This document shows positions 21,264 to 53,407 of a DNA stretch of 64,000 nt, one piece after another (position 1 is the first letter of the stretch; every line of letters starts with the position of its first letter). Below the pieces are notes generated by a model that saw only the letters and a program-made list of their open reading frames with translations, did no database searches and was not told where the DNA came from. Both the position numbers and the translations under genes were made by a program. The stretch comes from a virus (taxonomy: Duplodnaviria; Caudoviricetes): IMG/VR virus record IMGVR_UViG_2513237329_000015, positions 33,052-97,051 of that record; one strand, 5' to 3'.

Positions 21264-22379
21264 ATGGCTATGAATGTAACCGTAAACCGGGCCGAATTTC
21301 TGGCGGCGGCAAAGCGGGCGGCATCGGTTGCTCCGCTCTCATCCCCGCTGGAGCCGCTGAGAGGTATCCTGCTGGAGACCGACCGCAGGGAAGGATGCCT
21401 GACTATCAGCGCCACCAACCTGGAGGTTTCTCTTGTCCAAACCATCCCGTGCACCTCTCTGGACGTCGACGCCCTGGTACTCAATGCCCGGCTTCTGGAA
21501 GGGATGCTCGACAAACTGGAGGAAGACAGCGTGACGCTGATCCGTGTGGAGCAGCAACCGGTGGTTTTACTCACCAGCGGCCTTGCCACCTATAGGATAG
21601 GGGTATGGGAGCGCGGCCTCTTCCCGCAAATCGAATCGCCCTATCCGGCGGATACCGTCCTGGTCACTGGAATCCCTGCCATGACCAAGCGCACCATATT
21701 TGCGGTGGGAGAGAAGAAAAATACGCCCCTGCTGCGCTGCGTAAACCTCATGTTTACGCCGAACGGCCTGAAAGCGGTGGGCAGCAACGGAAGCTGTGTG
21801 GTCAGCGCGAAGGGGGACAGCCAGAGTACCGGCAACATCAGCTTGCTTGTGCCGGCATCTTCTCTGGGCAAGCTGGCCCACATGTGTGAGGATACGGATG
21901 AATTCCGGGTCGGAACCACTGGAGACCATATCGTTTTCTTCCGGGACGGACTTCTGTTCAGCGCACGGCTCATGTCCGGCCGGTATATCAATACCGAACA
22001 GCTCATCTCCTCTCTGGTCAACACCTTTACTGTTTTTACCGATGTGACCGATCTGCGTGATGGCCTTTATACCGCCTGCTCTGTGGAAGCGGATGGGAAG
22101 GTCATGCTGCACTTTGAGGGGGACCGGCTCATATTCCGCTGCGACGGCGTCTACGGCAGTGCGGTTTCCCAGATCGACGTGATCCCGTTGAGAGGGACGC
22201 CCCAGGGAGAGTTCTGGTATCTGACCCGTCCGCTCCTGACGTGCCTGGATGCACTTTCCGGTACGGTCCAGCTTGGCACGGCGCAGGGCGGTCTGCTGAC
22301 CATCTCCACTGAGGACGCTTTTTATATGCAAAACGGAGTGCGCCCGCCCAGTGAGCAGCAGTCCTCTAAGGCGGCCTGA
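21264..22379 (+). CDS. DNA polymerase III beta-clamp paralogue 1 (divergent)
   Basis: 371 aa; VNRAEFLAA...LRGILLE...LTISATNLEVSL; ARLMSGRYIN. Confidence 0.8.
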   Translation: MAMNVTVNRAEFLAAAKRAASVAPLSSPLEPLRGILLETDRREGCLTISATNLEVSLVQTIPCTSLDVDALVLNARLLEGMLDKLEEDSVTLIRVEQQPVVLLTSGLATYRIGVWERGLFPQIESPYPADTVLVTGIPAMTKRTIFAVGEKKNTPLLRCVNLMFTPNGLKAVGSNGSCVVSAKGDSQSTGNISLLVPASSLGKLAHMCEDTDEFRVGTTGDHIVFFRDGLLFSARLMSGRYINTEQLISSLVNTFTVFTDVTDLRDGLYTACSVEADGKVMLHFEGDRLIFRCDGVYGSAVSQIDVIPLRGTPQGEFWYLTRPLLTCLDALSGTVQLGTAQGGLLTISTEDAFYMQNGVRPPSEQQSSKAA

Positions 22380-38495: not shown

Positions 38496-38725
38496 TTGGA
38501 AAAACTCCACCTATACAGGAGAGAAAAGGGCTGATAGAATAAAGGCGTATTCTAGGTCAGAGCAAGATTAAGGGCGGAGTAAGTTAGGGCGGAACGGCGT
38601 GGAAGGAGGGTGAAGTCTGCCCTCTGCCGGACAGCTACGACCTGGAAAATTGAATCTGGACATGAATGACTGTAATTGCCTTTTGGGGCGGTTGCGGTCT
38701 TTTTTGTCCCCAAATACGAAAGGAG
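38496..38725 (+). promoter_or_regulatory. Duplicated promoter + structured leader + intrinsic terminator, copy 2
   Basis: TATACA(38512)-N17-TAGAAT(38535); terminator from 38668; RBS GAAAGGAG. Confidence 0.85.
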
Positions 38726-38733
38726 CTTTCCAT

Positions 38734-40269
38734 ATGAGTGAGCAGAACAGCACCGGCTGGCCGTTTGGTCAGGCAGCAGGCGAAGGACTTGACATCAGCG
38801 CCATCTTTGGTACTGGAACCGCAGATCCAGACCGAAATCCATTTGACCCCACAGGAGCGGCCTCTGCTCCCGCGGCATCTGTTACGCCGCCCCCTGCGGC
38901 GCCTGTCACGCCGTCCCCCGCAGCGCCTGTCACGCCGCCTCCTGCGGCGCCTGTCACGCCGCCTCCTGCGGCACCTGTCATGCCGCCCCCTGCGGCACCT
39001 GTCACACAGCCCCCCGCGGCACCTGTCACACAGCCCCCTGCGGCGCCTGTCGCGCAGTCCCCTGCGGTGCCTGTCGCGCAGTCCCCTGCGGCGCCTGTCG
39101 CGCAGTCCCCTGCGGCGCCTATCGCGCCGCCCCCCGCGGCGCCTGTCACGCAGTCTCCTGTGGAGGCTGAACAACCCGCCAATCCCATTGAAGCGGCGTT
39201 TGCCAAGCAGGAAATGGCAAACGCCCAGCAAAACCTTCTGGAGAAAAAGCCCATCTTCTGCCACAAGGGGGCCAAAGAACCCATCGAAGATCCCACGATT
39301 ACCTTTGAGGAGTTGCGCATCTGCAAGGCTGAGGACTTTGTGGATTTGGAAGAGGGCAAAACTGTCTCCTGGTCAATGGAATACGGCGGCATCCGAAAGG
39401 AAGTCAAGGACCCCAAGGGGACGACCATCGCCGCTATGAAGCAGAGCATTGAGCGGTCCCGCGAGTTCCTGGAGGCCCTGAAAAAGTCCAAGGACAAGAA
39501 TCCGGACTGCTTGGTGAGACCCAAGGTTATCATGAAGACTAAGGGCATTCTCTCTCCTTACAAAGCCCACTGTGAGTCTCTGGAGGAGGCCAGGAAGTCG
39601 GACAAAGTGATCTGTCTCGTCCCCTCCGGAGACGGAAAGCTCTATGAGGTGCGCAAGCTGGAACAGGGGGAATTTATCGCCCCAGCGAAGAAAGCGTCTG
39701 AGTTTCAGGTGGTCAAGGCCGGGTTTACCCCGGCTTTGCCCCTGATCCCCATGGCGCTGATCGGGCAGATCACCGCCTTCTTCCGCTCCTTCATGCGGGA
39801 AAACGAGGAGAACGAGGCACTGGCGCTTATCTATTGGGATAAGGTCGAGCAGCGGTTTTTCGCCTATGTGCCCCCGCAGGTTGTATCCACAGGGGATGTC
39901 GAGGCGGATCTCCGTGACTGCCCTTATGACGATGATACCCGGTACATCCGCTACGCAGACCTTCATAGCCACAATTCGATGGAGGCATTTTTCTCCCCAA
40001 AGGATGACCAGGATGAGCAGGGCACCGGCCTCTATCTTGTTATGGGACAGGTAAACCGCTTCTTCCCGGAGCTGCGGGCGCGGTTCTCCTGCAATGGTTC
40101 TTTTGTGGAGATCGATCCCGGAGCGATTATCGAGGGCCTGACTCAGCCATTCCCGGAGGAGTGGAGCGGGCATGTGAAGCGGCGGAAAGACCGCGGCCAG
40201 GCCAAGCCGATCCGGACGACCTACCGGCACTTACGGCCATACACCGAGTTCCCGGAGGTGGAGCCATGA
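38734..40269 (+). CDS. Pro/Ala repeat region + putative Ubl (ending TKG) + JAB/MPN metalloprotease (PRTRC C/A-like fusion)
   Basis: JAMM residues ENEALA...DLHSHNSMEAFFSPKDDQDE; central KPIF...EDPTITFEELR...F.DL...MKTKG. Confidence 0.8.
   Translation: MSEQNSTGWPFGQAAGEGLDISAIFGTGTADPDRNPFDPTGAASAPAASVTPPPAAPVTPSPAAPVTPPPAAPVTPPPAAPVMPPPAAPVTQPPAAPVTQPPAAPVAQSPAVPVAQSPAAPVAQSPAAPIAPPPAAPVTQSPVEAEQPANPIEAAFAKQEMANAQQNLLEKKPIFCHKGAKEPIEDPTITFEELRICKAEDFVDLEEGKTVSWSMEYGGIRKEVKDPKGTTIAAMKQSIERSREFLEALKKSKDKNPDCLVRPKVIMKTKGILSPYKAHCESLEEARKSDKVICLVPSGDGKLYEVRKLEQGEFIAPAKKASEFQVVKAGFTPALPLIPMALIGQITAFFRSFMRENEENEALALIYWDKVEQRFFAYVPPQVVSTGDVEADLRDCPYDDDTRYIRYADLHSHNSMEAFFSPKDDQDEQGTGLYLVMGQVNRFFPELRARFSCNGSFVEIDPGAIIEGLTQPFPEEWSGHVKRRKDRGQAKPIRTTYRHLRPYTEFPEVEP
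38868..39160 (+). repeat. 24-bp coding tandem repeat (PAAPV[T/A][P/Q][P/S]), about 12 copies
   Basis: CCTGCGGCGCCTGTCACGC.G.C. units. Confidence 0.9.
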
Positions 40270-41033
40270 GGTTTCCCACCGATGTCCCGGTCAAGCTTGT
40301 GATGCTGGGAACTGGCGGGACCGGCGGGCACGCCGCCCCCCACCTCTACCGGATGCTGCACGCATTGAACCGGCCCGCACGGTTTATCCTCTGCGACGGG
40401 GACCTGGTGGAAGCGAAAAACCTTATCCGACAGAATTTTGCGCCCGCCGACCTGGGGCAGAACAAGGCCAGGGTGTTAGCTGAGCGGTATGCCTCCGTGT
40501 TTGGGATGAAGGCGGAATATGTGCCCTCCTTCGTGGAGACACGGGAGGAGCTGATGCGTCTGATCCGGCCCGGCATCTGGGAGATCAAGGAAGGTCCTTA
40601 TCTCTATAAGCTCAAGCGGGAAATGGTGCTTCTGCTGGGCTGTGTGGACAACAACAAGTCCCGGAGGCTCTGCCACGAGGCGTTCTGCCAGTCGCAAGAC
40701 CTGGTCTATATTGACAGCGGGAATGAGGAGTTCTCCGGCCAGGTGGTCTGCGGGGTGCGGCGGAATGGGCGTACCATCTTTAAGCCCGTCGGCGGGATCG
40801 CCCCTGAAATTTTGAAGGCGCAGGACCGTTTTCCCTCGGAGATCAGCTGCGCAGAGGCGGCCCAGGCGGACCCGCAGAGCATGGCGGCCAATATTATGGC
40901 GGCTACCGTAATGGTGGATATGGTCTACAATATCCTGGCCCATGGGCGCAGCCGCGTCCGTGTTACAGAGTTTTCCACACAGACGGCAAAAATGCAAACA
41001 ACTTTAGAAAGTGCAAAGAGGGTGGCAGCATGA
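40266..41033 (+). CDS. ThiF/E1-like adenylyltransferase (PRTRC-type)
   Basis: GTGGTGG, DGDLVEAKNLIRQNF, GCVDN, DSGN, putative catalytic ISCAE. Confidence 0.9.
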   Translation: MRFPTDVPVKLVMLGTGGTGGHAAPHLYRMLHALNRPARFILCDGDLVEAKNLIRQNFAPADLGQNKARVLAERYASVFGMKAEYVPSFVETREELMRLIRPGIWEIKEGPYLYKLKREMVLLLGCVDNNKSRRLCHEAFCQSQDLVYIDSGNEEFSGQVVCGVRRNGRTIFKPVGGIAPEILKAQDRFPSEISCAEAAQADPQSMAANIMAATVMVDMVYNILAHGRSRVRVTEFSTQTAKMQTTLESAKRVAA

Positions 41034-42127
41034 AAACCATCGTTGACGCGAAGCCATTTTCCGACGCGCTGGCAAACGCCTGTACGGTGCCGCGCAAGTC
41101 CAGGATTCCCTGCCTGAACGAGGTCTACGTCCACGCATACCCGGACAAGTGTATCCTGGCCGCCACAGACCTGACGACATGGTTTATCACAGAAATCCCG
41201 GCCCAGGGGGATGAATTTTCCTTCATTTTTTCCCGAAGCTGCGTTGCGGAGAAAGCCAGCCGGTACTTCTGCGGAGAACTGGTCATGGAGTATGACGTGC
41301 TGGAGAACGAAAAGCGTCCCCGCTCCCGGCTCACCATGCGAAATGGCGCCCGGACCTGCGAATTTGAAGCCAGTTCCGGAGAGGACTACCCCGATCTGCC
41401 CAATGAGGACGGCGCCCCTCTGTTTTCTGTTCAGGCCGGCCGGCTTATGGACCGGATCAAGCGCACCGGATATGCGGCCGAGAAGCCTTCGGCCCATGCC
41501 CGGCCAATCGGCAGCTGCATCCAGTTCAGCGGCAACAGTATTTTTGCCCTGGACGGCCGCCGGATGGCATGGGACACCGATGAAAGCCTTACAGCGCCGC
41601 GGGAGTTCGGCCTCCAGCTGGACTTTCTGGCCCACTTGAAGGTGTTTGGCGAGGCCCGGGTGGATTTCCTCTGGGGAGCGCACTACCTTCAAGTCACAGA
41701 CGGGCGCACGCATCTGTTTTCTCAGCACCGTGAATTATCCGTATTCAACTTCCAGGGAGCAATCCCCCAACGATACGCCGAGCAGTTCACAGTCAGTCCC
41801 AAAGAGTTCCTGCGGGAGCTCACCTACCTAAAGGGTCTCCTTCCCAAGAGGGCAAAGCCGTATGTCTATTTCCACAACGGTACGCTCACAGCGCTGGCCT
41901 CCGGGGAGAAATACCGGACCGCCATATCAATTTCGGGAGAGACGGATTTGACCGTCGGTTTCGATTTGGTCTACATGATGGATGCTTTAAAACAGTTTTC
42001 CGGTAAACCCCGGGTCACGGTGAAGTTCGGCGGAGGGATGTCTCCCATTGTGGTCGGGGCAGAGAACCGCAGCGACCACGCACTGGTACTCCCCGTCTGG
42101 GTAAAGAGTGATGCAGATGTGGCGTAA
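41030..42127 (+). CDS. Beta-clamp paralogue 2 (divergent)
   Basis: 365 aa; LAATDL, DYPDLP, ALDGRRMA, GFDLVYMMDAL, SPIVV, LVLPV. Confidence 0.8.
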   Translation: MKTIVDAKPFSDALANACTVPRKSRIPCLNEVYVHAYPDKCILAATDLTTWFITEIPAQGDEFSFIFSRSCVAEKASRYFCGELVMEYDVLENEKRPRSRLTMRNGARTCEFEASSGEDYPDLPNEDGAPLFSVQAGRLMDRIKRTGYAAEKPSAHARPIGSCIQFSGNSIFALDGRRMAWDTDESLTAPREFGLQLDFLAHLKVFGEARVDFLWGAHYLQVTDGRTHLFSQHRELSVFNFQGAIPQRYAEQFTVSPKEFLRELTYLKGLLPKRAKPYVYFHNGTLTALASGEKYRTAISISGETDLTVGFDLVYMMDALKQFSGKPRVTVKFGGGMSPIVVGAENRSDHALVLPVWVKSDADVA

Positions 42128-42214
42128 CGTACCGAAAATAGAGCGACAGAAGGAAAAGACACAGCCGAATGCCGTGCCCTCGGCCAGAAATTGATTGACA
42201 GGAGTGTAAGAACT

Positions 42215-42595
42215 ATGAAAACCGTCTATATTCCCAAAGGACATACCGTGTGCTATGAGTCCCTGGAAACGGAGCATCTTGTAGTAGAGGGGTGCCTGAA
42301 GACCACCTGCGGCGTCAAGGCCAAGACCATCACGGGCGGCGGCGTGCTCAGCGCCGGCACCACCTCTGCGGATGTAATCTGCCTGGACGAGCTGGAGACC
42401 GGCTCTGTCTTCTGCCGCCGCCTGCTCGCCAGGCGGGTCCAGACGCCGGAGCTGTTCGCTTCGGACAGCGCAGCGGTATCCTGTTTCCTCTCCGCGGCCT
42501 ATGTGGAGACCGGCAAGTTGACCGTGTCCATCAGCGAGACCGACGAGGTGAAGGCTGACGAGGTGATTCACCTCAAACCAAAAAACGCGGTATGA
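42215..42595 (+). CDS. Beta-strand-rich hypothetical protein (bactofilin-like beta helix?); possibly frameshift-fused to next ORF
   Basis: AGGAG RBS; V/T/G-rich; ends just after A-AAA-AAC. Confidence 0.55.
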   Translation: MKTVYIPKGHTVCYESLETEHLVVEGCLKTTCGVKAKTITGGGVLSAGTTSADVICLDELETGSVFCRRLLARRVQTPELFASDSAAVSCFLSAAYVETGKLTVSISETDEVKADEVIHLKPKNAV

Positions 42596-42963
42596 TCGCC
42601 ACGCTTCTGCTCTCCGCGCTGCGTTCCTTCTGGACCGGTCTCACGGCCCGGAACGGCTGGTATGAGCCGATGGACGCGGACTATATGCCAGCGGAATCCG
42701 TACCGGAGGCCGCCGGCCAGTCTGGTGCCGTACCGGAGGTCAATGCCGATACGGCGCATATCCTGGCGACTGACGCAAAACCGGAGGCGGGACAGACTCC
42801 GGAAGCAGAGGACGAGCCGGATGAAGAGCTCAACCGCGTGATCGGCCTGTTCAAGCTGGCCCGGGAATCCGGCTATACGCTCCGTCTCATCCCCGGCACT
42901 CCGGAGGAAAACGCGCCTGCATTTAATTTTCAGGAGCAGCGTGTCATTCCTCCCGCGGCATGA
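42592..42963 (+). CDS. Acidic hypothetical protein (possible C-terminal half of the previous gene)
   Basis: No clear RBS; lies in the -1 frame of the previous ORF. Confidence 0.5.
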   Translation: MIATLLLSALRSFWTGLTARNGWYEPMDADYMPAESVPEAAGQSGAVPEVNADTAHILATDAKPEAGQTPEAEDEPDEELNRVIGLFKLARESGYTLRLIPGTPEENAPAFNFQEQRVIPPAA

Positions 42964-42967
42964 GCGC

Positions 42968-43177
42968 ATGCGGGAGGTTGCCTATGAGGAGCGGCGCGTC
43001 CTGACGGTAGATGGAAAGGCCGTGCTCCAGATCCGAGCCTGCCGGGGGATGCTCCAGCCGGACGGTACGCTCCGTCTGCTGGCATATGCCGGCCGCCGGT
43101 GTCTGCTTTCTCAGGCGGAGACCGGCGCTGCCTCAGCGGGACAGAATACGACCACGAAAAAACGCGCGGCGGCTTGA
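42968..43177 (+). CDS. Small hypothetical protein
   Basis: Fills the operon gap; weak RBS. Confidence 0.4.
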   Translation: MREVAYEERRVLTVDGKAVLQIRACRGMLQPDGTLRLLAYAGRRCLLSQAETGAASAGQNTTTKKRAAA

Positions 43178-43266
43178 ACCGCCCGCGTGGAAGGCCGGGA
43201 AGCAGCAGGCTTCCCGGCCTTCTCAACGTTTGAAATAAAATGATTGAGAATGTGGAGGAAGCAAAT

Positions 43267-43716
43267 ATGTCGAACAAGTCTCAGGAACTCAATATGCGCC
43301 GTCTCGCCGCGCTGCTCAGTCAGGATCTCAGCTACATCGGAGGAGAACGGGAGTGTGGTCCGAATGGGGCCAAGCGAACCTTCCTGAACGTGGGGAAAAC
43401 CTTCCTGCGGGCCTTGGCAAAGGATCTCTGCCTGCATGATGTGACGGTCCGATCCAACGCCGGTGGGATCGCCGTATCCGGTGAATGCTGCCTTTACGGA
43501 ATGTGGGAAAACAACGGCATCTTTATTGAGATCTCTCAAAGCTGCTGCAGCTGGGTTGGGCCGGTCCTGTACCGTACCATCCGGAACGCCCACGACCACA
43601 AGGGCGGGCACAGCCGGTATCTGAGTTTGAACGATTTGAAAAAGTGCTCCTACAATGAGGTCTTGGAGTGTTTTTCCTCCTTGCGGAAGGGGTACGGCTG
43701 TGAGCGGGCCGCTTGA
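43267..43716 (+). CDS. Hypothetical MGE protein
   Basis: GGAGG RBS; SNAGGIAVSGE motif. Confidence 0.7.
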   Translation: MSNKSQELNMRRLAALLSQDLSYIGGERECGPNGAKRTFLNVGKTFLRALAKDLCLHDVTVRSNAGGIAVSGECCLYGMWENNGIFIEISQSCCSWVGPVLYRTIRNAHDHKGGHSRYLSLNDLKKCSYNEVLECFSSLRKGYGCERAA

Positions 43717-45112
43717 GGAGCGGGATGAGCAGCAGTTCTACGCCTCCGAACGGCTCAAGGACTGCCAGCACATGATTCTGCGTATGGCGCAGTCCCTGGT
43801 GGTGCAGAGGGCCAGGGTTGAAAAGGCCCGTAGCGCCGGCCTTGCCGCCGCCCGGGACGCCTATTCTGATCTGCAGGAGGTGCGCGGCTATCTGCTGGAA
43901 GCGCTCTCCGACGTCCGGCCCTGTCTCATGGAGGTGGAGGAGTACAAGCTGGCTGCTGCCGCGGGACAACTCCACGCGGGGCTTGCACACTTCGATCTGA
44001 TGTCAACGGCTTATAAGCCGGTCTATGACGCACTCTGCGGCTTTGCTGGTTCTCTTCCAGTCAGCGGTACCACCAATGCCGCCGTGGTCGGACGGCTTAT
44101 GAACAATATCAAGCTGGGGTATTACCCCACCGACCCGGACAATATCGCACTGCTGCTCCGGGGTATTCAGTTCCCGGAGGGTGTTACCACCAACCTCCTT
44201 GATCCCTGCTGCGGCTGCGGGAAGGCCCTGCGGCAGCTCGCCGAGGGGAACAACTGCTTTGCCTACGGCGTGGAGCTGGACGAAAGCCGCGCCGGGGAGG
44301 CGCAGACCCGCCTGCACCGTGTAGGCTTCGGCAGCTTTTTCTTCAGCCGGATCAGCCGTGAGGCGTTCCATCTGCTGTTTCTGAATCCGCCTTATCTGTC
44401 CGTACTCAATGGCAGCGGCGGGCAGTCCCGGCATGAAAAGCGGTTTCTCATTGAGAGCATCGGCCACCTAACCTATGGGGGCCTGCTGGTCTATGTGATC
44501 CCCTATTACCGCCTTACCCCGGACATCTGCCGTATCCTGATGGACAATTTTGAGGCTCTCTCTGTCTGGCGCTTTACCGATGGGGAGTTCAAGCGGTTCA
44601 AGCAGGTGGCCGTCCTGGGCCTTCGGAAGCGGAGAGAGACGGAGCCGCCGGATACCCTGTGGCTGGAGCAGTACGCGGTCTCCCCCGCATCCATCCCCAG
44701 CATTTCAGACCTGCCGGAGCACCGGTATGCGCTTCCAGCTTACCCCCTGGAGGTCACGACCTTCATGGGCGAGAGATTCAATCAGAAGGAGCTGGAGCAG
44801 CAGCTCAAGCGATCCAACAGCTTTCAGCAGCTTATGGCCCGCAGCGAACTGGACAACGATGTAAAACGGCCGCCGCTCCCGCTCTCCATCGGGCAGATCG
44901 GCCTTGTGGGCGGCTCCGGTATGATCAACGGGCTCGTCCGGTGCAATTTTCCACACGTCATAAAGGGACGCATTGTCAAAGTGATCCGGACGGAGACGGA
45001 GGAAAAATTCAGCGCTGAAGGTAAACACCTGGGATCGGAGATCCGCGAGACAATCGCCAACAAAATGATCTTCAATGTTCTGACGCCTAACGGATTTAAA
45101 TCCCTGGCATAG
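43700..45112 (+). CDS. DUF6094-like SAM-dependent DNA amino-methyltransferase
   Basis: GYYPT, LDPCCGCG, GVELD, FLNPPY. Confidence 0.85.
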   Translation: MSGPLEERDEQQFYASERLKDCQHMILRMAQSLVVQRARVEKARSAGLAAARDAYSDLQEVRGYLLEALSDVRPCLMEVEEYKLAAAAGQLHAGLAHFDLMSTAYKPVYDALCGFAGSLPVSGTTNAAVVGRLMNNIKLGYYPTDPDNIALLLRGIQFPEGVTTNLLDPCCGCGKALRQLAEGNNCFAYGVELDESRAGEAQTRLHRVGFGSFFFSRISREAFHLLFLNPPYLSVLNGSGGQSRHEKRFLIESIGHLTYGGLLVYVIPYYRLTPDICRILMDNFEALSVWRFTDGEFKRFKQVAVLGLRKRRETEPPDTLWLEQYAVSPASIPSISDLPEHRYALPAYPLEVTTFMGERFNQKELEQQLKRSNSFQQLMARSELDNDVKRPPLPLSIGQIGLVGGSGMINGLVRCNFPHVIKGRIVKVIRTETEEKFSAEGKHLGSEIRETIANKMIFNVLTPNGFKSLA

Positions 45113-45122
45113 CGAGGAGGAA

Positions 45123-45410
45123 ATGATGTTATTTACGGAAACGTCCGGACGGTTCTCACCTGGCCGTCTTATCGCGAGCGAAGACCTGCTAGCATGTGTG
45201 GCAAAAGAAGAGCTTCTAAACGCCTATTGCCATCACCTGAATTGCGACTGGGGTGACGTCCCGGATTCAGTTCAGCAGAGCAACGATTATGCACTTAGCC
45301 ACGGCGAGGCTCTGCTCTCTGTCTATACATCAACCGGCGGAATCCGGTTTTTGATCGTCACGGAGGCGGACCGGTCGGCCACGACCTGTTTACTTCCAGA
45401 AGAATATTAA
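45123..45410 (+). CDS. Conserved small plasmid/ICE protein
   Basis: H..CDWGDV...N..AL..G..LLSVY...IVTEADRSATTCLLPEEY. Confidence 0.8.
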   Translation: MMLFTETSGRFSPGRLIASEDLLACVAKEELLNAYCHHLNCDWGDVPDSVQQSNDYALSHGEALLSVYTSTGGIRFLIVTEADRSATTCLLPEEY

Positions 45411-45427
45411 GAAACGAGGTATGCTAT

Positions 45428-45997
45428 ATGGCTATGACAGCGCTTCCTCTGGCGTTCATTGTTCCGGCTGAGGAGCTTCCCGCAGACGACCGCACGGCGC
45501 AGGGCGCCGTATGGTCTACTGTGGCCAGCCTGCTTCAGTCTGGCCTTGGCAGAAAATTCTCCAAATTCTATCCCCAGCTCCGACTGGAACAACAGGGAGG
45601 TTACGCCCCCTTCGGCGTGGTTCTCGGCCGAGCTGCCCCGCCCCTGTTTCGGGAGCTCTACCGTAAGGCGCTGGACAGGCAGGCTGGCGCGATCATGCAC
45701 CATACGCTGAACACGCTGTCCCGCTTGAATCCAGATCAATTTTTTGAGGAGGACGGTACCATCGTCTGTCCGGCCGTTATAGATGGCAGCGATCCTGACC
45801 TGATGTTTCACGGCCTCTGGCATCTGGCGATGCAGCAGGGCGAGATTCTTCCCGACTGCGGTGTTTACCATGTCGCGCAGAAACGGGCGTCTATTGAACC
45901 GAAGGAAGTGCAGCAGACGCTGGCGCACCCCGAACGTTATGCCCTCTGCATGGTCTGCCTGGAGCCGCCGGAGGTGCCGTGTGATGATGAGATTTGA
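45428..45997 (+). CDS. Hypothetical protein
   Basis: GAGGT RBS; overlaps next gene. Confidence 0.65.
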   Translation: MAMTALPLAFIVPAEELPADDRTAQGAVWSTVASLLQSGLGRKFSKFYPQLRLEQQGGYAPFGVVLGRAAPPLFRELYRKALDRQAGAIMHHTLNTLSRLNPDQFFEEDGTIVCPAVIDGSDPDLMFHGLWHLAMQQGEILPDCGVYHVAQKRASIEPKEVQQTLAHPERYALCMVCLEPPEVPCDDEI

Positions 45998-46283
45998 CCC
46001 GGAGCAGTTCTTCCGGCTTTTGCAGCAGCTTCCGCCCAGCCAGCCCATGTCGGAACCGGCGGAGCACAGCGCCTACCTCCAGCGGGAGGTATTCGACAGG
46101 CTGAAGAACCACGAGCTCATCGATCTGACAAAGCTGGACTGGGATGCGTTCGACCTCAGCCACGTGACGCCGGAGGACTATGAGCACAGGTACAAAATCA
46201 ACCAGTCGAACTGGCTGCAGGGCTTTAACAGGATGCTTCAAGGCATAGAGCCTGCGGCGCTGGAAAAGCAGGTATTCTTCTGA
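45984..46283 (+). CDS. Hypothetical protein
   Basis: GGAGGTG RBS. Confidence 0.6.
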   Translation: MMRFDPEQFFRLLQQLPPSQPMSEPAEHSAYLQREVFDRLKNHELIDLTKLDWDAFDLSHVTPEDYEHRYKINQSNWLQGFNRMLQGIEPAALEKQVFF

Positions 46284-46294
46284 GGAGGGGGACA

Positions 46295-46837
46295 ATGTAC
46301 GACTACGATGACTACGAAGAGGATGTACTTCTGGTGCTGCGCGTACTGAAATACCTGCACGGCGTACAGACCAGGGAGGAATTTCTGAAAACACTCAACC
46401 ATTGCACAGAGGCAGGGATGGATGAGCTGTATGAGCTGGCAGATACCTTCACCTGGGAGCTTTTCCCCGCAGCGGTATTTGATATAGATGAAGAATGGGA
46501 TGCCACAACGATGTCCTTCTCTCATCCCAATATAGACTGCTATCTGTCTTTGACCGGCCGGCTGGACACCACACATGGGCACAGGCTTGCCCTTCGGAAA
46601 CGCCTGGAGGACATCGCGCTGTATTTCTGCATGGTGACGGACTCAGTGACAGGAGTGCAGTTCTCCCCTATGGACGAATCGACCTGCGTAAAGCTGCGGT
46701 TCTCTCCGGACTGCTGCGATACGCTGGGCTTTGCCAATTCCATGGTGGATCTGCTGCGCTATCTCGACCGGGAAAACCGGCGCCTGGAGAAGCTGTGCCT
46801 GGAACAGCAAAATGAAAGTGATAAGGAGGCGGCCTGA
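46295..46837 (+). CDS. Acidic hypothetical protein coupled to the E2 gene
   Basis: GAGGAGG RBS; TGATG overlap. Confidence 0.7.
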   Translation: MYDYDDYEEDVLLVLRVLKYLHGVQTREEFLKTLNHCTEAGMDELYELADTFTWELFPAAVFDIDEEWDATTMSFSHPNIDCYLSLTGRLDTTHGHRLALRKRLEDIALYFCMVTDSVTGVQFSPMDESTCVKLRFSPDCCDTLGFANSMVDLLRYLDRENRRLEKLCLEQQNESDKEAA

Positions 46838-47526
46838 TGGCTCGGCCAGAAAACAGAGATTATACGCGGGACTCCTGCATCCGGTGGTCCCCGGAACGGG
46901 GTTTGCTCATTGTGGAGGAGAAAAAGGAAGATGGGGTGATATCCTGTCAGCAGATTGACCCGTTTGACCTCTATTGTGCGCTCAACGAGGGTTATAACAA
47001 CAAGGATTTTCTCTCCAGCGGCTTCCTGCCGGAGCACTGCCTTTCCGTGGCAATGAACGGCTCGGAGCGGTACTTTGTGCTGTGGAACCCGGAGCTGCGG
47101 GCCGATCTGACCTATTTGAATACGGAGTACCCGGACTTCCCGCTCCCCCGGCTGGTGTTCGGTATCCGCATGCTGAACACCGGACGGATCGCGGAGTGTT
47201 CCATCGGCGTTGCAGCGGATGAATCCCCAAGGCCGGAGACGGCGATGTATGAGTATCCGTTCTCCAACGTTCATCCGGACCGGAAGCTGTGTGCGGGCAA
47301 TAACGTCCTGCCCAGATACAAAAATATCCTGAGCATGAAGCACTTTCCCCGCTATGTGCTGGGCCTGCCGGACAACGATGATCTGTACGACCGGGAGCAC
47401 AACCGCCTCGGACTTGGCCATGCCGAGCTGATGGAACACCTGAAGGACAAAGACCCCGCGTATTACTACACGGATGTTCTGGTGCCCCGCGGCGACACCC
47501 TAGGGGACTTTATCATTGGGAGGTAA
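46837..47526 (+). CDS. Prokaryotic E2 family D protein (PRTRC B-like)
   Basis: SGFLPEHCL, FPLPRLVF, YPFSNV...LCAGN with putative catalytic Cys. Confidence 0.78.
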   Translation: MARPENRDYTRDSCIRWSPERGLLIVEEKKEDGVISCQQIDPFDLYCALNEGYNNKDFLSSGFLPEHCLSVAMNGSERYFVLWNPELRADLTYLNTEYPDFPLPRLVFGIRMLNTGRIAECSIGVAADESPRPETAMYEYPFSNVHPDRKLCAGNNVLPRYKNILSMKHFPRYVLGLPDNDDLYDREHNRLGLGHAELMEHLKDKDPAYYYTDVLVPRGDTLGDFIIGR

Positions 47527-47529: not shown

Positions 47530-48576
47530 ATGGAACAACGAACCGCCAAACAGATCCAGGAGGCCCTGGCAAAGCCCTTCGCAGCGGGCGACCTGGAATG
47601 GAGGCTGCAAAAGGCATATCCCCAGGAGATGCGCGGCATCGCCGTCCCTTATGTGACCAACCGGGCCATTCAGTACCGGCTGGACGACGTGGTGGGCGTG
47701 GAAAACTGGTACAACAGATTCAAGCCCTGGCATAAGTTCGTTGCCAAGGTACCGGGCAAGGAGGACTACCGAAAGCTGGAGGACAAGGAGATTATCTCCC
47801 AGCTCTGCGGCATCGCCATCTACTTTGCCGAGCGCAAGGAGTGGGTCTGCAAGTGGGACGGCGCCGAGCTTTCCGAGATCGAGCCTGTAAAGGGCGGCCT
47901 CTCCGACAGCATGAAGCGGGCGGCCTACCAGTGGGGCATCGGCCGGGTCCTCTACGACATGAACACAGTATGGGTCGATATTGAGAAGAAAGGGAAGACC
48001 TGGTTCATCCGGGACGACCAGCGCCAGAAGCTGGACAACGCATACCTCAAGCTGCTTGACCGGCTGGGCCTGAAGCCCATGCCCGCAGGCGGGACCGAGG
48101 CACTGCTGGTGCCCAAGGACATCCCGGAGCAGGAGGAAGACGGAGCGCCCCCCGACGCACCGGGCTCTGTCCAAAGCACCCCGGTCCCGGAGCAGAAGCC
48201 GGGCGCGGCCTGTTCCACGCAGCCGGCCGCACCATCTGCGGCCCCAAAGGGCAGCACGGCCAAGGCTGAACAGGCGCAGGTCAGCTCTGCCGCAGGAAGT
48301 CGCTCCCGCACACCATCGTCCGCGCCCTCTCAAAACACGTATGAGTACCGGGTGGCGGCGTCCAAGGTACAGAAGGGGATGAATACGGTCAACACGCTGG
48401 TGCGCCTGGAGGCGGCCGACGGGAAACAGGTGGACGCCTTCGCCCCCGGCGAGCATCACGCCCTGACTGTGGGAACGCTGCTGACTGGCGTGCGTCTGTC
48501 CGTCCGCCGGCAGGACACCGTTGTGTTCTATGTGCTGGAGGACTACCGGATCGCAACAGCCCCCCAGGCGGCGTAG
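47530..48576 (+). CDS. Rad52/Rad22-family single-strand annealing protein
   Basis: LAKPF...LEWR...YVTNRAIQYRLDDVVG..NW...KGGLSDSMKRAAYQWGIGRVLY. Confidence 0.88.
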   Translation: MEQRTAKQIQEALAKPFAAGDLEWRLQKAYPQEMRGIAVPYVTNRAIQYRLDDVVGVENWYNRFKPWHKFVAKVPGKEDYRKLEDKEIISQLCGIAIYFAERKEWVCKWDGAELSEIEPVKGGLSDSMKRAAYQWGIGRVLYDMNTVWVDIEKKGKTWFIRDDQRQKLDNAYLKLLDRLGLKPMPAGGTEALLVPKDIPEQEEDGAPPDAPGSVQSTPVPEQKPGAACSTQPAAPSAAPKGSTAKAEQAQVSSAAGSRSRTPSSAPSQNTYEYRVAASKVQKGMNTVNTLVRLEAADGKQVDAFAPGEHHALTVGTLLTGVRLSVRRQDTVVFYVLEDYRIATAPQAA

Positions 48577-48623
48577 GAATCTGTGATAAATATTTGAGAA
48601 AATTTTTGGAAGGGAGACGCGCT

Positions 48624-50502
48624 GTGAAAAAAAATAGAGCAATTCTACATCACGGAGCTGACACTCGCCGGATTTAAGAACTACCTGGAGCCGACCACCT
48701 TTGTTTTCGGCAATCCGACGGTCATCACCGGTGGAAATGGCCAGGGCAAATCCACCCTTGCCGACGCGGTCGCCTTCGCAGTCACCGGCCTTCCCTTTTT
48801 TGGGGAGCGCGGCATCGACCGGCTTTACAATGACGCCATGAAACAGCAGATGGAGTTGTCGGTCCGGCTGCGGTTTGTGGACCAGGACGGCGCGGCGCAT
48901 GAGCTGTACCGTCTCCGGAAAAACAGCCGCATGGTCATCACCTATGACGGCTATGACATCCGACAGACCGACCTTACGGACATGTTCGGGGAACGCGATG
49001 TGTTCCTCTCCATTTTCAACCCGCTCTATTTCATCGAGGTATTGGAGGACGATGGGAAAAACCTTCTGGAGCGGTATCTGCCGGTGATCCCCCATGAGAC
49101 GGTTCTCTCACAGCTCTCCGAACACGTACAGGAGAGTCTGAAGGACGAGGAGATCCTGTCCCCGGAGGTCTATCTCAAGAGGAAGCGGGAACAGATCCGT
49201 GAGCTGGAGGAACAGATCATCTATCTCACCGGGCAGAAGGATCTCACCTGCCTTCAGGGCCGGGAGTCCAGCAAGGCGTCGGCTTCCCTGAATGAACAGC
49301 TCCAGTCTCTCCAGGAGGAGGCCGGTCATTTAGAGCAGAAACGCTTTTCCGGTCTGGAACCGAAGGAGATGGAACGACAGCTTGTAGAGCTGAGCCGACA
49401 ATACGACGAAACATCCCGCGACCTTCGGAGCGCGGAGCGTTTTTCCGAGATCGACGGGCAGATTTCAGAGTTGACCCAAAAAGTTGCCGCCCGGCAAGCG
49501 GAGTCCTACCAGTCAAAATTTTTGCAGCCTTTGGCTGATATCTCGGCCCGTGTCAGTGAGTTGGGACGGCGATATAAACAGGAGCTGCACAACTTCCAGT
49601 CCTTTGCACCCGGCGTATGCTGCCCTACCTGCCATCGCCCCATCACGGAGGCGGCGCTGGAAGAGGTCCGCGCTGAGACAGAGAAATTTGTCCAGGCGCT
49701 CATTGCACAGGGCAAAGAGCAGCAGGCTCAATTCGCAGAGCTGAAAGCGCTGGACCAGCAGGCAGCGGAAACCTTTGTGCAGTTCAAGCAGGATGATCTG
49801 AGGGCCTGGTCGGAGGAACTGGAACGCCTACGGAGTCAGCGCCGGGAACTGGAGGAGGACCGCCGGGGTGAGGAACAGCTGGAAACATTAAGGGAACAGA
49901 TCCAGGAGCTGACCTCTGCGCTGGAATACGGCAATCTGACACAGGCGGGTTATGACCGCCTGAAAGAGTGCAAGGAGGAGATCCGGGAACTGGAGGCTAA
50001 GATCGAAGCGAATCAGACTACGGCTGGATGGACGGAGGCGGAGTTTGACGCCCAGATCGAAAATACCAGAAGCCAGATCACAGAACTCAGGGAGAAGATC
50101 TCAGATGCAATCATCTACATCAGCAAGCGCACAGAACTGACCTTTGCCCCTCTAAAGCTGAACCGGGTGGCCATTTCCCTCTACGACATTGTAAAAAGCA
50201 CAGGAGAGCGCAAGGACGCCTTCCGTTTTACCTACCAGGCGGAGGGCTGCACGAAGGGCCGCCTCTATAAGTGCCTCTCCCACTCCGAGCGGCTGCGGGC
50301 CGGCATGGAGGTGTCCGAGATGGTGAAGCGGCTGACCGGGCGGAATTACCCGGTATTTGCGGATGACATGGAATCCATTGAGGATTTGTCGAACGTAAAG
50401 CCCACCGGGCAGGTCATCATGGCCAGGGTTGTTCCCCATGCTCCCCTCTCCGTCCAACCGCTCCAGCCCATCCAGGCATCTGCTCAGGCACAGGCGGCAT
50501 GA
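48624..50502 (+). CDS. SMC/Rad50(SbcC)-like ATPase with Zn hook; GTG start out of frame by one base at an A8 run
   Basis: In-frame upstream extension IEQFYITELTLAGFKNY...GGNGQGKST; coiled coil with CPTC; LSHSE, VFADDMES. Confidence 0.82.
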
Positions 50503-50529: not shown

Positions 50530-51588
50530 ATGACCTATGAGAAACTTCCGATCGTGGACGCGGCCAGACGGTGCGGGCTGATGCTGGACGCCCGGACGTT
50601 GCGGCGCGAGGAGATCGAGGCGGCCTGCCCCTTTTGCGGCGACCACGGGCCAGGGAAATACCATTTAAGTCTCAACACCAGCACCGACCAATACCGCTGC
50701 AACCTCTGCGGCGCCCGCGGCAACAGTGTCACGCTGTACGCAAGGCTGCATGGGATCGGCAATAAAGAGGCGTACCGGGCGCTGGCGGAGGGCTCAAAAA
50801 TCTATCCGATGCCGCATCCGCCGGCGTCCCCAAAAACAGAGCGGCAGCCACTTGCGCTTGCGCAGCGGCACGCCGCCTACACCACAATGCTGGAGCACCT
50901 CGTACTGCTGGACCAGCACAGGGAGAACCTGCTGGAACGGGGGCTCTCAGAGGAACGCATCCAGCAAAACCAATACCGCAGCATGCCGGAAACGGAACAG
51001 GGGAGGCGGCTTCTCGCCGCCCTCCTCCGCTCCGGCGGACAGGAGCTTCAGGGGCTCCCCGGCTTCCGTACCCGCTATGGAGAGTGGACGCTCAGCGGCC
51101 CCAAAGGTTTTTTGATCCCGGTACGTGACAGGGACGGTCTCATTCAAGGGCTCAAAATCCGTCTGGACGACGCCGGCAAGCCGGACCGAAAGTACCGCTG
51201 GCTGTCCACACGGGGCGCCCCCAACGGAACCAGGAGCTATTCCTGGGTCCATGTGACAGGGGACACCAGTCGGAAACGGGCCTATCTGACCGAAGGGCCG
51301 CTCAAGGGGGATGTGGCGTCTTTCCTGGGGAGCGACGCGCTCTTCGTGTGCATTGGCGGCGTCAACGCCATCGGCGGCCTTCGGAAAACGCTGGAGGGTC
51401 TGAAGGTCAGGGAGGTCGTGGAGGCCATGGATTCAGACCAGATGACCAATCCTCACGTGAGAGGCGCGGTTCTCGCCATGCGGAAGGAGGTACAGCGTAT
51501 CCCCGGCATCCGCTATTATAAATACACCTGGGACCCGGCTTACAAGGGTGTGGACGACTATCTTCTCAGCCGCACGGCGATGAGATAA
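50530..51588 (+). CDS. CHC2 zinc finger + TOPRIM (DUF3854-like) primase
   Basis: CPFC...CNLC...GN; IPVRD; KYRWLS; LTEGPLKG; DSD; KGVDDYL. Confidence 0.85.
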   Translation: MTYEKLPIVDAARRCGLMLDARTLRREEIEAACPFCGDHGPGKYHLSLNTSTDQYRCNLCGARGNSVTLYARLHGIGNKEAYRALAEGSKIYPMPHPPASPKTERQPLALAQRHAAYTTMLEHLVLLDQHRENLLERGLSEERIQQNQYRSMPETEQGRRLLAALLRSGGQELQGLPGFRTRYGEWTLSGPKGFLIPVRDRDGLIQGLKIRLDDAGKPDRKYRWLSTRGAPNGTRSYSWVHVTGDTSRKRAYLTEGPLKGDVASFLGSDALFVCIGGVNAIGGLRKTLEGLKVREVVEAMDSDQMTNPHVRGAVLAMRKEVQRIPGIRYYKYTWDPAYKGVDDYLLSRTAMR

Positions 51589-52381: not shown

Positions 52382-52432
52382 CCGTTAACAGACAAACCAT
52401 AATCATCAACTTTGAAAGGGGCAATCAGCTTT

Positions 52433-53407
52433 ATGGGAAACCTGTTTCATATGAACGACTTTGTGGCCGCCTCCCAGGGAGACGCCCAGAATATGCTGGG
52501 GAAGTTCCTCTACTTTTCCCTGTCAAACCTGCTGGTGGAAAAGGCGCAGCTCTCCGAGCTGTGCGAGAGCATGGGTATCTCCTATTCTGGCGGCACCCGG
52601 CTTTCGGTGGCTGACGCCTTCCGCTCCGCCACCGGGGACATCAAGGAGCGCAAGCCCGTCACGGTTGCCGGCGAGACAAACATTTACCTCGTCTATTGCC
52701 GGGACAACAAGCACACGGCGGATGCGCTCTCACGGGAATTGGTGAAGGAGACGCTGAACCAGAAGACCAACCGCTATGAGAAGCTGGCCAACATCACCTG
52801 CGACCGGAAGGATGGGCAGATCTACTGTACCAACATCGTAATGGACCCGGATATTGACGTGCAGGCCCGCTGCCGTCAGGCGGAGGAGCTGTTCGAGCTC
52901 TATCAGCGGTGCGCCAACCGCAAGCAGATCGAGACCATCTGTGCAAACTTCCTGCGGGAAATGGAGGCCACCAAACTGAGCATCAACGGACACCTGTACT
53001 TTGTTCCCAGAAGTCACATGGAGAAGGTGGATATCTTCGAGGATTTCATCGGGCTGCTGGGGGGCATGAACCGGAACAATACCCCTCTTGTCGTCAACAG
53101 CTTTTACATCATTGACGACGAAAAACAGCGCAGCAAGATGGCTGAGGAGTTCTACAATGCGGTCAAAAAAGAGATCACCGAGTATCAGGAGCGGTGCGAC
53201 TACTTCATCAAGAGCAACTGTCAGAGCCCGGCCGTGATGGAACGCTGGGTTTTGAAGGTGCGCGGCCTGGAGGAGCGCAAGCGCCACTATGAGGAGATCC
53301 TCCGCCGGGAGTTGAATGGGCTGGATGAGGAGTTCTCTACGCTGAAGCTGCTCTCACAGGAGCTTCAGGTGAGGGCGAATGCCATCCACCTTCAAAAGGC
53401 AGCCTAA
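52433..53407 (+). CDS. DUF6744/DUF3150-like protein
   Basis: LGKFLYFS, DAFRSAT, GHLYFVP, C-terminal coiled coil. Confidence 0.6.
   Translation: MGNLFHMNDFVAASQGDAQNMLGKFLYFSLSNLLVEKAQLSELCESMGISYSGGTRLSVADAFRSATGDIKERKPVTVAGETNIYLVYCRDNKHTADALSRELVKETLNQKTNRYEKLANITCDRKDGQIYCTNIVMDPDIDVQARCRQAEELFELYQRCANRKQIETICANFLREMEATKLSINGHLYFVPRSHMEKVDIFEDFIGLLGGMNRNNTPLVVNSFYIIDDEKQRSKMAEEFYNAVKKEITEYQERCDYFIKSNCQSPAVMERWVLKVRGLEERKRHYEEILRRELNGLDEEFSTLKLLSQELQVRANAIHLQKAA

Follow-up and report, generated by a model that had tools for sequence, protein, structure and literature searches.

A probable PRTRC-related ubiquitin-like conjugation cassette, with its modifier fused to the JAB peptidase, in the early operon of a gut Oscillospiraceae prophage

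The window analyzed here, a stretch of 64,000 nucleotides (positions 33,052 to 97,051 of the IMG/VR record IMGVR_UViG_2513237329_000015), comes from a provirus of 97 kb, which is complete and has terminase, portal and tail genes and a DGR; the provirus record is rated 100% complete. The features under study are listed in Table 1, and upstream of the cassette lie the terminase, portal, protease and tail genes. The carrier is a prophage of gut Oscillospiraceae, i.e. a temperate phage. A reading of the carrier as a conjugative element was rejected given these phage genes and the provirus record.

Table 1. Features of the cassette, its operon and the sister gene run (positions in the window)
Feature	Position	Strand	Evidence or remark
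Promoter/leader repeat, copy 1	16051..16269	+	heads the sister gene run
Sister gene run	16051..22379	+	leader copy 1, SNF2-type helicase, 623-aa protein, clamp paralogue 1
SNF2-type helicase	16287-19367	+	C-terminus ...NQLSLFGPAA
Clamp paralogue 1	21264-22379	+	solved clamps E 1.5e-11; dnan E 3e-16
Promoter/leader repeat, copy 2	38496..38714	+	219-nt direct repeat, upstream of the Ubl-JAB gene
Ubl-JAB fusion protein, 511 aa	38734..40269	+	profile, fold and alignment evidence
Ubl-JAB: N-terminal short motif	38758-38811	+	first part of the fusion
Ubl-JAB: Pro/Ala-rich 24-nt repeats	38821-39204	+	
Ubl-JAB: NPF	38836-38844	+	after the N-terminal motif
Ubl-JAB: predicted beta-grasp Ubl domain	39226-39546	+	residues 165-271, end K-G
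Ubl-JAB: JAB-N and JAMM peptidase	39547-40266	+	
E1-like ThiF adenylyltransferase, 255 aa	40266..41033	+	ATG overlaps the Ubl-JAB stop (ATGA)
Beta sliding-clamp paralogue 2, phage type, 365 aa	41030..42127	+	ATGA overlap with E1
Two ORFs, 134 and 123 aa	42191..42963	+	no family match; core gene after E1
Conserved 158-aa protein, ends -AA	43240..43716	+	conserved in relatives
DUF6094 methyltransferase	43655..45112	+	PF19587 E 8.5e-177; kept in relatives
Four small conserved genes: 95, 189, ~98 (45987-46283) and 180 aa	45123..46837	+	no family match
E2-like protein (Prok-E2_D), 229 aa	46837..47526	+	profile and alignment A5
Rad52/22-family annealing protein	47530..48576	+	PF04098 E 7.9e-14
SMC/Rad50-like ATPase	48623..50502	+	Rad50 model E 6e-8
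Primase-like protein	50530..51588	+	CHC2 zinc finger E 4.7e-4; dnaG E 2.2e-6
DUF6744 protein, end of the conserved run	52412..53407	+	PF20529 E 2.5e-113

All gene features described in an earlier note on this DNA were recovered. The genes for Ubl-JAB, E1 and clamp 2 are indeed joined by consecutive ATGA overlaps, both of which (at 40266 and 41030) were read directly in the sequence, and the E2 gene is followed directly by the Rad52-like, Rad50-like and primase genes (46837-51588). We also observed the leader that was said to be shared with a sister run carrying a second clamp and a helicase ending in QLSLF: the two copies are 96% identical across 219 nt, without a match to any Rfam family, and the helicase ends in QLSLFGPAA. 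The cassette region is probably the first half of an early operon for replication and recombination, carried by a temperate Oscillospiraceae phage.

Among the remaining genes of the operon, the slot occupied here by two short ORFs after clamp 2 holds a single ORF of 221-242 aa in two relatives (L001 and L003). In the SMC/Rad50-like gene the Walker A motif precedes the first ATG in frame (48838); the start is probably a GTG at 48623, which is shifted out of frame by one base at an A8 run, and the relatives of this gene match SMC_N and AAA_23. About ten early protein families were seen to have a conserved C-terminal -Ala-Ala.

For the product of the JAB gene, the match to PRTRC_A had an E-value of 4.5e-13, and the match to Prok-JAB (E 9.4e-5, 22.7 bits) fell slightly below the 25-bit cut-off. 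The JAMM motif reads HSHNSMEAFFSPKD. In an alignment of 30 sequences the pattern E...HxHx7SxxD is invariant (E197, H247-S-H249, S257 and D260), and Foldseek placed 8tyx_B, a bacterial Ubl-deubiquitinase complex of the Bil type, first for the JAB domain. The JAMM active site of a Ubl-conjugation cascade is thus present, by its invariant residues and by the JAMM fold matches. The protein is represented by more than 840 clusters at 90% identity, which are ~65-70% identical.

The 'missing' Ubl of the cassette is, judging by the structural model, a beta-grasp domain fused ahead of JAB, with a disordered tail on its N-terminal side and the peptidase on the other. The AlphaFold model of this domain (pLDDT 88, pTM 0.78) has the order beta-beta-alpha-beta-beta-alpha-alpha-beta. 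In VIA-align, all 50 of the top 50 matches were ubiquitin-like beta-grasp domains aligned over residues 3-107 with Z scores of 5.5-6.8, which are moderate values, so that the weight lies in the uniformity of the hit list and not in its strength. Foldseek placed ubiquitin, NEDD8 and UBL domains on top. By sequence the domain matched neither Prok_Ub nor any Pfam family, and it gave no profile match to protein C of phage Dina. Its C-terminal K106-G107 is invariant in 30 sequences, and the alignment with a stand-alone PRTRC_A-like protein of a Bacillus jumbo phage begins only one residue past this K-G junction. In the predicted structure confidence is low for the linker past Gly271, and the JAB site is seen without the tail docked in it. 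A search for natural proteins with Ubl and JAB cleanly separated found none; the short forms were broken copies. The N-terminal motif of the fusion protein resembles the C-terminal peptide of host FtsZ.

The ThiF-type protein matched PF00899 (E 1.1e-13) and PRTRC_ThiF (E 4.1e-26), matched the CBASS Cap2 and 6A-MBL models weakly, and has MccB among its nearest solved relatives by sequence. Alignment A4 (23 sequences) showed invariant G15-x-G17-G18-T-G20, D44, R55-Q-N57, K67, D128-N129, R133 and C195; these residues provide both an adenylation site and a candidate catalytic cysteine. The C-terminal tail reads ...RRKAA. The E2-like protein scored above the cut-off of the Pfam model Prok-E2_D (31.9 bits vs 25; E 1.3e-7), and alignment A5 (25 sequences) showed an invariant YPFSN144V...C152, i.e. 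a catalytic cysteine with an upstream asparagine eight residues apart. The spacing of Asn and Cys in the classical HPN...C motif is also eight. A variant element (L005/L006) keeps E2 with all invariant residues, without Ubl-JAB and E1; E2 may therefore act outside the cascade, or this element may be decaying.

Both clamps score under the dnaN equivalog cut-off and are therefore paralogues and not the host dnaN; no pairwise similarity was detectable between them. The matches of clamp 2 to TIGR00663 (E 5.6e-15, positions 1-365 of 367), to solved clamps (E 1.4e-6, residues 19-355) and to phrog_947 'DNA polymerase processivity factor' (E 2.1e-27, positions 3-367 of 368), as well as the match of clamp 1 to solved clamps, agree with a three-domain DnaN architecture in both.

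The conservation of the cassette was surveyed in 61 related Oscillospiraceae loci, 50 of which could be scored for clamp 2. Ubl-JAB and E1 were adjacent in every locus extending past the JAB gene, and the E2-Rad52-SMC-primase run was found downstream wherever the sequence of the relatives reaches far enough. The arrangement is kept in dozens of relatives at 40-70% protein identity; the hosts are Oscillibacter, Lawsonibacter, Flintibacter, Bengtsoniella and their relatives. Clamp 2, however, followed E1 in 26 of the scorable loci and was absent from 24, where E1 is followed directly by the next operon gene. On the E1 tree this corresponds to at least eight gains or losses, some of them between near-identical E1s. 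Therefore, the cassette is not tied to clamp 2 and works without it; clamp 2 is a phage processivity factor, an accessory gene in a variable operon slot. A close homologue of clamp 1 was present in all five clamp-2-less genomes that were searched. Conservation of the clamps in relatives, on which the earlier note had staked its proposal, thus held only by half for clamp 2, and it held for clamp 1 in the five genomes searched. What stands of that interpretation is a PRTRC-like E1, E2 and JAB among replication and recombination genes, with two clamps, the QLSLF helicase, the shared leader and no ParB; clamp 2 as a fixed partner of E1 does not.

The closest known arrangement is the PRTRC cassette, operon type 6d of Iyer, Burroughs and Aravind 2006 (PMC1779556), covered by NCBIfam models TIGR03735-03741. 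The two share an N-terminally extended JAB, a ThiF-type E1, an E2 of the Prok-E2_D/PRTRC_B kind and a Ubl with a single conserved terminal Gly, as well as a ThiF gene right behind JAB, an order also seen in Ralstonia phage Dina; both occur on mobile DNA, phages included. On the other hand, the phage Ubl is fused to JAB and has no Prok_Ub sequence match, and the phage E2 lies 5.8 kb from E1, with other conserved genes between them, and adjoins Rad52. All NCBIfam scores were below the cut-offs: 49.2 bits vs 101.8 for JAB against TIGR03735 (PRTRC protein A), over the C-terminal 127 model positions only; 91.8 vs 144.75 for E1 against TIGR03736 (PRTRC ThiF), which was still the best-scoring model for E1; and 35.3 vs 131.45 for E2 against TIGR03737 (PRTRC protein B). 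PRTRC proteins D, E and F were not found by NCBIfam models in the other ORFs of the run, and PF14454 (Prok_Ub) had no match in six frames of the whole provirus, so protein C was not found as a small free gene. The statement that no ParB is recognizable was borne out, as PF02195 matched nowhere in a six-frame search of the entire 97-kb provirus. Given these scores and the absence of ParB and of proteins D, E and F, we regard the phage cassette as a distant relative of PRTRC.

Bacillus jumbo phage vB_BauM_KLEB27-3 likewise has a PRTRC_A-like JAB directly upstream of ThiF (gp195/gp194). Its ThiF is 33% identical to E1 (E 3e-32), and the JAB-N and JAMM region of its JAB aligns at 95.6% probability; it differs in having no fused Ubl, and the annotation lists neither clamp, E2 nor Rad52 closer than 8 kb. 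The BilABCD bacterial ubiquitination system (bioRxiv 10.1101/2023.09.26.559546; 10.1101/2023.09.04.556158) comprises the same four activities, Ubl, E1, E2 and JAB DUB, and its DUB pre-processes the Ubl to expose Gly; BilC cuts even a Ubl-GFP fusion in this way (bioRxiv 10.1101/2023.09.26.559546). Bil, however, is a host defence island of separate genes with a multidomain eukaryote-like E1, while the phage set consists of a minimal 255-aa ThiF and a Ubl-DUB fusion in a phage early operon.

We estimate a probability of about 0.6 that the region encodes a complete four-part PRTRC-related ubiquitin-like conjugation system with the modifier fused to JAB; self-cleavage, conjugation and the targets are what we infer beyond the folds, the catalytic motifs and the gene order. 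In such a system the JAMM peptidase would cleave the fusion protein to which it belongs right behind the invariant Lys-Gly (Gly271), yielding a modifier made of the N-terminal tail and the Ubl domain. The ThiF-type E1 would adenylate Gly271 and hand the modifier on, probably via Cys195, to Cys152 of E2, which would attach it to lysines of the targets. The JAB domain may also remove it.

With respect to the targets, the proposal of the earlier note that the cassette reversibly modifies the element's own clamps or repair proteins (here clamp 1, clamp 2, Rad52 or the SMC/Rad50-like protein) during phage replication, analogous to PCNA ubiquitylation, is rather unlikely, although it leads the alternatives. 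It draws on the translational coupling of E1 and clamp 2, on the Rad52, SMC-like and primase genes that follow E2 in relatives reaching far enough, on the clamp 1 homologues in the clamp-2-less genomes and on the leader common to both gene runs. The frequent absence and turnover of clamp 2 argue against it, and being neighbours in a phage early operon says as much about when genes are expressed as about which products are physical partners. The likeness to eukaryotic PCNA ubiquitylation or SUMOylation, a clamp gene adjoining Ubl-conjugation genes, is an analogy only; clamp 2 is dispensable in half of the relatives, and clamp modification is a candidate role. Somewhat less probable is a take-over of the host in which the FtsZ-like motif guides the modifier to host proteins that bind the FtsZ peptide (the divisome anchors FtsA and SepF, possibly ClpX), or simply occupies them, and so alters division or proteolysis in lytic growth. 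The motif [LF]D[IFV]x[AKE][IV]F[GNQ] is kept at the N-terminus of Ubl-JAB with or without clamp 2, while FtsZ of the host lineage ends in ...DPFDDIFKIFN, ...FDSIFKIFN or ...FDDILKIFE. In open frames totalling 734,273 residues a regular expression derived from the motif matched only 37 Ubl-JAB N-termini and two FtsZ C-termini, and a Pro/Ala-rich linker follows the motif, similar to the FtsZ sequences read. Still, the motif is short, the expression was partly shaped after FtsZ had been seen, the motif is N-terminal in Ubl-JAB and C-terminal in FtsZ, and in the three cases compared it did not co-vary with the FtsZ of each host.

The Bil system tags the tail protein of an invading phage with Ubl, and a prophage-borne anti-phage system of this kind, acting in superinfection exclusion, would agree with the weak matches of E1 to CBASS Cap2 and 6A-MBL, with the Bil-type DUB as the best fold match of JAB and with the related operon families predicted or shown to be defence systems. 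We consider it improbable, since there is no compact island (eight or nine conserved non-defence genes separate E2 from E1), the set belongs to the operon core throughout the family and has a leader in common with the helicase run, and PADLOC had no model match for JAB or E2. It is very improbable that E1 activates the conserved -Ala-Ala C-termini of neighbouring proteins instead of the fused Ubl. Cap2 does activate the tail of a CD-NTase and MccB a peptide C-terminus; MccB is among the nearest solved relatives of E1 by sequence, and about ten families in these operons have a terminal -AA. However, the -AA ends persist in the element that lost E1 and Ubl-JAB, and E1 itself has such an end. Host tmRNA tags also end in -AA, so a degron is the simpler reading of these termini.

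To our knowledge, ubiquitin-like conjugation in bacteria has been demonstrated experimentally only in host defence, in type II CBASS and Bil, and we know of no function established since 2006 for the PRTRC-type cassettes of mobile DNA. The conjugation set described here is complete and strongly conserved, and it belongs to the core early operon that an abundant family of gut prophages carries. Some of the hosts are cultured, and the system is therefore testable: the fused Ubl-DUB permits a simple self-cleavage assay, and the conserved motif at the N-terminus offers a way towards the targets. Since clamp 2 is dispensable, the search for targets moves off the most obvious candidate. In a speculative offensive use, to which we assign a low likelihood, the self-cleaving Ubl-DUB polyprotein of this widespread phage family would free a modifier with an N-terminal tail mimicking the FtsZ C-terminal peptide. 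E1 and E2 would attach it to host proteins that bind this peptide (divisome anchors or ClpX) or to replisome proteins, while the ssrA-like -Ala-Ala on about ten early proteins would leave the early programme as a whole open to that same host protease. If this reading holds, these phages would be the first to encode a ubiquitin-like conjugation system whose targeting signal is defined and directed at the host.

The window covers bases 33,052-97,051 of an IMG/VR provirus record of 97,051 bp, rated 100% complete. Genes for a large terminase, a portal, a prohead protease, a tail protein and a reverse transcriptase occupy the 33 kb upstream of the window, together with a 3182-aa ORF that by position alone is a candidate for the tape-measure protein, while four tandem serine recombinase genes stand at the 3' end of the window. 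The reverse transcriptase is part of a diversity-generating retroelement (DGR) with a 141-nt template/variable repeat pair, in which 18 of 18 mismatches fall at template adenines; the variable repeat lies at the 3' end of the gene of a 912-aa Big_3 tail protein. Given the provirus record, the structural genes, the DGR and the recombinases, the "mobile element" of the earlier note is a temperate phage, and the ubiquitin-like (Ubl) system is located in its early replication and recombination region. PRTRC protein B of a P. vulgatus prophage was recently reported as a DGR target; here E2 was ruled out as the target, since the variable region is in the tail protein. The provirus also encodes a 2770-aa RHS/YD-repeat protein, followed by an SLH/WG-repeat protein.

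What the earlier note had observed in the two early gene runs was borne out in full. The genes of the JAB protein, E1 and clamp 2 are joined by two ATGA overlaps, both read in the sequence; the 219-nt leader upstream of the JAB gene recurs with 96% identity ahead of the sister run; and the latter carries an SNF2-type helicase gene with a second DnaN paralogue (clamp 1) two genes on. The two clamps showed no pairwise similarity to each other. A search of the leader against Rfam gave just one chance-level row, and neither the plasmid nor the phage collection contained a megablast match to the region. Pfam (E up to 5), NCBIfam, PHROGs and PADLOC had no match for the small ORFs (134, 123, 158, 95, 189, 98 and 180 aa).

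Features of the early gene runs and related loci (window positions unless a locus is named), with homologues ending in -Ala-Ala
Feature	Position	Strand	Remarks	Ending -AA
Reverse transcriptase gene end	445
RHS/YD-repeat protein	2355-10667
SLH/WG-repeat protein	13355-15454
Leader, copy in sister run	16051-16269
SNF2-type helicase			Ends NQLSLFGPAA
Clamp 1 (DnaN paralogue)	21264-22379			10/10
MoxR-type AAA+ ATPase	31610-32986			none
VWA-domain protein	34782-36386			none
OmpR-type protein	37574-38266	-	230 aa
Leader, copy before JAB gene	38496-38714
511-aa JAB-containing protein	starts 38734	+	Head of run
N-terminal motif of Ubl-JAB	38758-38844
255-aa ThiF-type E1	second in run from 38734	+		45/52
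365-aa beta-clamp paralogue (clamp 2)	third in run from 38734	+		22/22
ATGA overlaps	40266, 41030		JAB/E1/clamp 2
Nine ORFs between clamp 2 and E2		+	Eight small, without family match; one DUF6094 methyltransferase	methyltransferase, none
134- and 123-aa ORFs	42191-42963		ATGA overlap at 42592	35/37
158-aa protein				25/26
95-aa protein				none
180-aa protein				17/17
Prok-E2_D protein (E2)	end of run	+	This and next four in this order	1/35
Rad52-family protein	end of run	+		32/32
SMC/Rad50-like ATPase	end of run; 48623-48838	+	Likely GTG start 48623; A8 run 48626-48633	18/21
CHC2 primase-like protein	end of run	+
DUF6744 protein	end of run	+		3/3
-AA C-terminal codons	19362-19367, 22374-22379, 41025-41030, 42955-42960, 43708-43713, 46829-46834, 48568-48573, 50494-50499, 53399-53404
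DGR repeats	L008:11633-11773, L008:11959-12099		L008, upstream piece of provirus; contig bases 31633-31773, 31959-32099
Decayed cassette remnants	L077:4001-4940, L079:4001-6100		Other contigs
Variant element	L005:5339-18374		ParA, ParB, Bro-N and Gp49 replace Ubl-JAB and E1

Two early candidates were rejected: a 365-aa ORF from a greedy ORF call (29612-30709) has no clamp similarity and is not clamp 1, and the supposed helicase at the MoxR position is that AAA+ ATPase. The stretch between the two runs (31610-36386) also encodes an SSB ending in ..DDGELPF and a HicB-like protein; many relatives keep the MoxR/VWA pair upstream of Ubl-JAB. A gene divergent from the run, just upstream of the shared leader, codes for a candidate early-operon regulator, whose winged-helix DNA-binding domain is of the OmpR type. 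The slot of the overlapping 134- and 123-aa ORFs is filled in two relatives (L001, L003) by one ORF of 221-242 aa, which may mean a split or a frameshift of the gene in the window. In the SMC/Rad50-like gene, the Walker A motif GGNGQGKS is upstream of the first in-frame ATG, and the likely GTG start is offset from the frame by one base at the A8 run; sequencing error, true frameshifting or slippage may each explain the shift.

Homologues of the Ubl-JAB protein form more than 840 clusters with ~65-70% identity over residues 165-511. Aligned, they have a conserved motif at the N-terminus, then a Pro/Ala-rich linker that varies, then a conserved block of ~105 residues closing with an invariant Lys-Gly (the K-G junction, ending at Gly271); the JAB-N and JAMM parts come next, where E, HxH, S and D are invariant. 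The block had no sequence match in Pfam (E up to 5), NCBIfam, Prok_Ub, PHROGs or PADLOC, no usable match in an ESM Atlas look-up, and, in a profile comparison, no similarity to PRTRC protein C of phage Dina. Modelled alone with AlphaFold2 (pLDDT 88, pTM 0.78), it folds as beta-beta-alpha-beta-beta-alpha-alpha-beta. The best 50 matches of VIA-align among 48,161 chains were all ubiquitin-like beta-grasp domains (Z 5.5-6.8, over residues 3-107), including FERM F1, RA, ISG15, FUBI, ATG12 and the Rad23 UBL; Foldseek also placed ubiquitin, NEDD8 and UBL domains on top, with weak E-values. The best structural match of the JAMM part was the DUB in 8tyx, a solved bacterial complex of Ubl and DUB. With a stand-alone PRTRC_A-like protein of a Bacillus jumbo phage, the window protein aligns only beyond the K-G junction, starting at the very next residue, so the Ubl has been added N-terminally to a JAB-N/JAMM module.

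We looked for natural split forms, in which a separate Ubl would end at K-G. The short proteins recovered were truncated by contig ends or decayed (by a nonsense codon in place of the Tyr that follows K-G plus a broken E1, or by deletion); they are uninformative either way on processing. In one remnant the Ubl part is joined by deletion to a clamp fragment, beside a Tn916-type integrase; in the other the nonsense codon directly follows the junction and E1 is broken.

The E1 alignment retains the GxGGTG loop, D44, R55-Q-N, K67, D128-N and R133, with an invariant Cys195 within "ELSCAE". In E2, "YPFSNV" and Cys152 are invariant, the latter eight residues after Asn144, a distance that matches HPN...Cys of classical E2s; the E2 profile had no match among PDB sequences. 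Judged from these alignments together with the JAMM motif, Ubl, JAB, E1 and E2 all look functional and under purifying selection.

The proposal that a clamp gene is a fixed neighbour of E1 did not hold. Homologues of clamp 2 (40-45% identity) do occur on metagenomic contigs in the same gene order (Ubl-JAB, ThiF, clamp ... DUF6094 ... E2, Rad52, SMC, primase, DUF6744), the clamp alignment found just 3 loci in IMG/VR, and clamp 2 matched phrog_947, a phage processivity-factor family, with E 2e-27. We surveyed 61 loci from species-representative genomes, fetched with the Ubl-JAB alignment and nearly all from Oscillospiraceae (Oscillibacter, Lawsonibacter, Flintibacter, Pseudoflavonifractor, Bengtsoniella, Angelakisella, Anaerotruncus). 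E1 directly followed Ubl-JAB in every locus reaching past the JAB gene, and E2, Rad52, SMC and primase lay downstream in nearly all loci long enough (exceptions L024 and L043). The clamp followed E1 in 26 loci and was absent in 24, where the next conserved gene came immediately after E1 and left no space for it. A tree of E1 with 53 rows requires the clamp to have been gained or lost at least 8 times, at least 4 of these forced by well-supported branches, and some changes separate near-identical E1s (e.g., L040 vs L044). All five genomes with a clamp-2-less element that were searched had a close homologue of clamp 1, besides a weaker, host-type dnaN match; it was in or adjoining the element in G003 and G006, 13 kb away on the opposite strand in a third, and was not placed relative to the element in the other two. 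Given the 24 absences and the repeated changes, the slot beside E1 is a variable one, and the clamp gene in it is an accessory.

A variant element (L005/L006) lacks Ubl-JAB and E1. Clamp 2 is still there, every invariant residue of E2 is in place, and L005 also retains the methyltransferase and Rad52. Its replacement genes include ParA and ParB, located upstream, and RepA_N is upstream in the relatives L003 and L004; some family members may be phage-plasmids.

In the two early runs, some ten families of proteins share a -Ala-Ala C-terminus conserved in relatives (L014-L074), preceded by variable residues. At least 11 of the ~70 provirus genes end so, compared to 0.6 expected (P ~2e-11), and these ends are kept in an element without E1 and Ubl-JAB. 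The tmRNA tags of the host lineage, read by hand because the ARAGORN tag call was implausible, end in ...VAIAA and ...VAVAA. Recognition of such ends by ClpXP is well established. The simplest reading is that -AA is likely an ssrA-like degron common to phage early proteins; we found no paper describing conserved -AA ends on early phage proteins.

The Ubl-JAB N-terminus reads WPF..EGLDISAIFG..NPF before the Pro/Ala-rich linker, with LDIEKIFG and GDIEKIFN among the variants in relatives. It is similar to the peptide at the C-terminus of FtsZ in the host lineage (...DPFDDIFKIFN, ...FDSIFKIFN, ...FDDILKIFE), which suggests a possible host-directed role. A motif regex matched 37 Ubl-JAB N-termini, 2 FtsZ C-termini and no others in 734,273 residues of open frames; it was partly shaped with FtsZ already seen, so the likeness is a lead rather than a result.

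The best-supported reading is that of a working Ubl cascade whose modifier would be released by self-cleavage. A bacterial JAB DUB pre-processes its Ubl, even as a Ubl-GFP fusion (bioRxiv 10.1101/2023.09.26.559546), and self-cleavage of the fusion after Gly271 is therefore the natural expectation; the modifier would be freed at that step. Among the targets that such a cascade may have, clamp 2 cannot be an obligate one, and clamp 1, Rad52 and the SMC-like protein, all named in the earlier note, are possible. A role in defence is less likely because the genes are dispersed and have core status in the operon. The interpretation in the earlier note was partly right: replication genes do surround a Ubl system, but E1 is linked to a clamp only facultatively, and the carrier is a phage.

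For JAB, E1 and E2, the best-matching models were those of PRTRC, far below cut-offs, and ParB and PRTRC proteins D, E and F are absent from the element. Canonical PRTRC cassettes also occur in phages, e.g., in Ralstonia phage Dina (order E-C-F-B-A-ThiF), and Bacillus jumbo phages carry JAB-ThiF pairs. Compared to PRTRC, the window system has its own fused Ubl-DUB, a split layout with E2 beside Rad52, and, in one phage family, the status of a core early function; it is best called a PRTRC-related variant. The PRTRC operon type appears as 6d in a 2006 survey (PMC1779556), which did not settle its function. The system is a variant, new in form, of this known kind.
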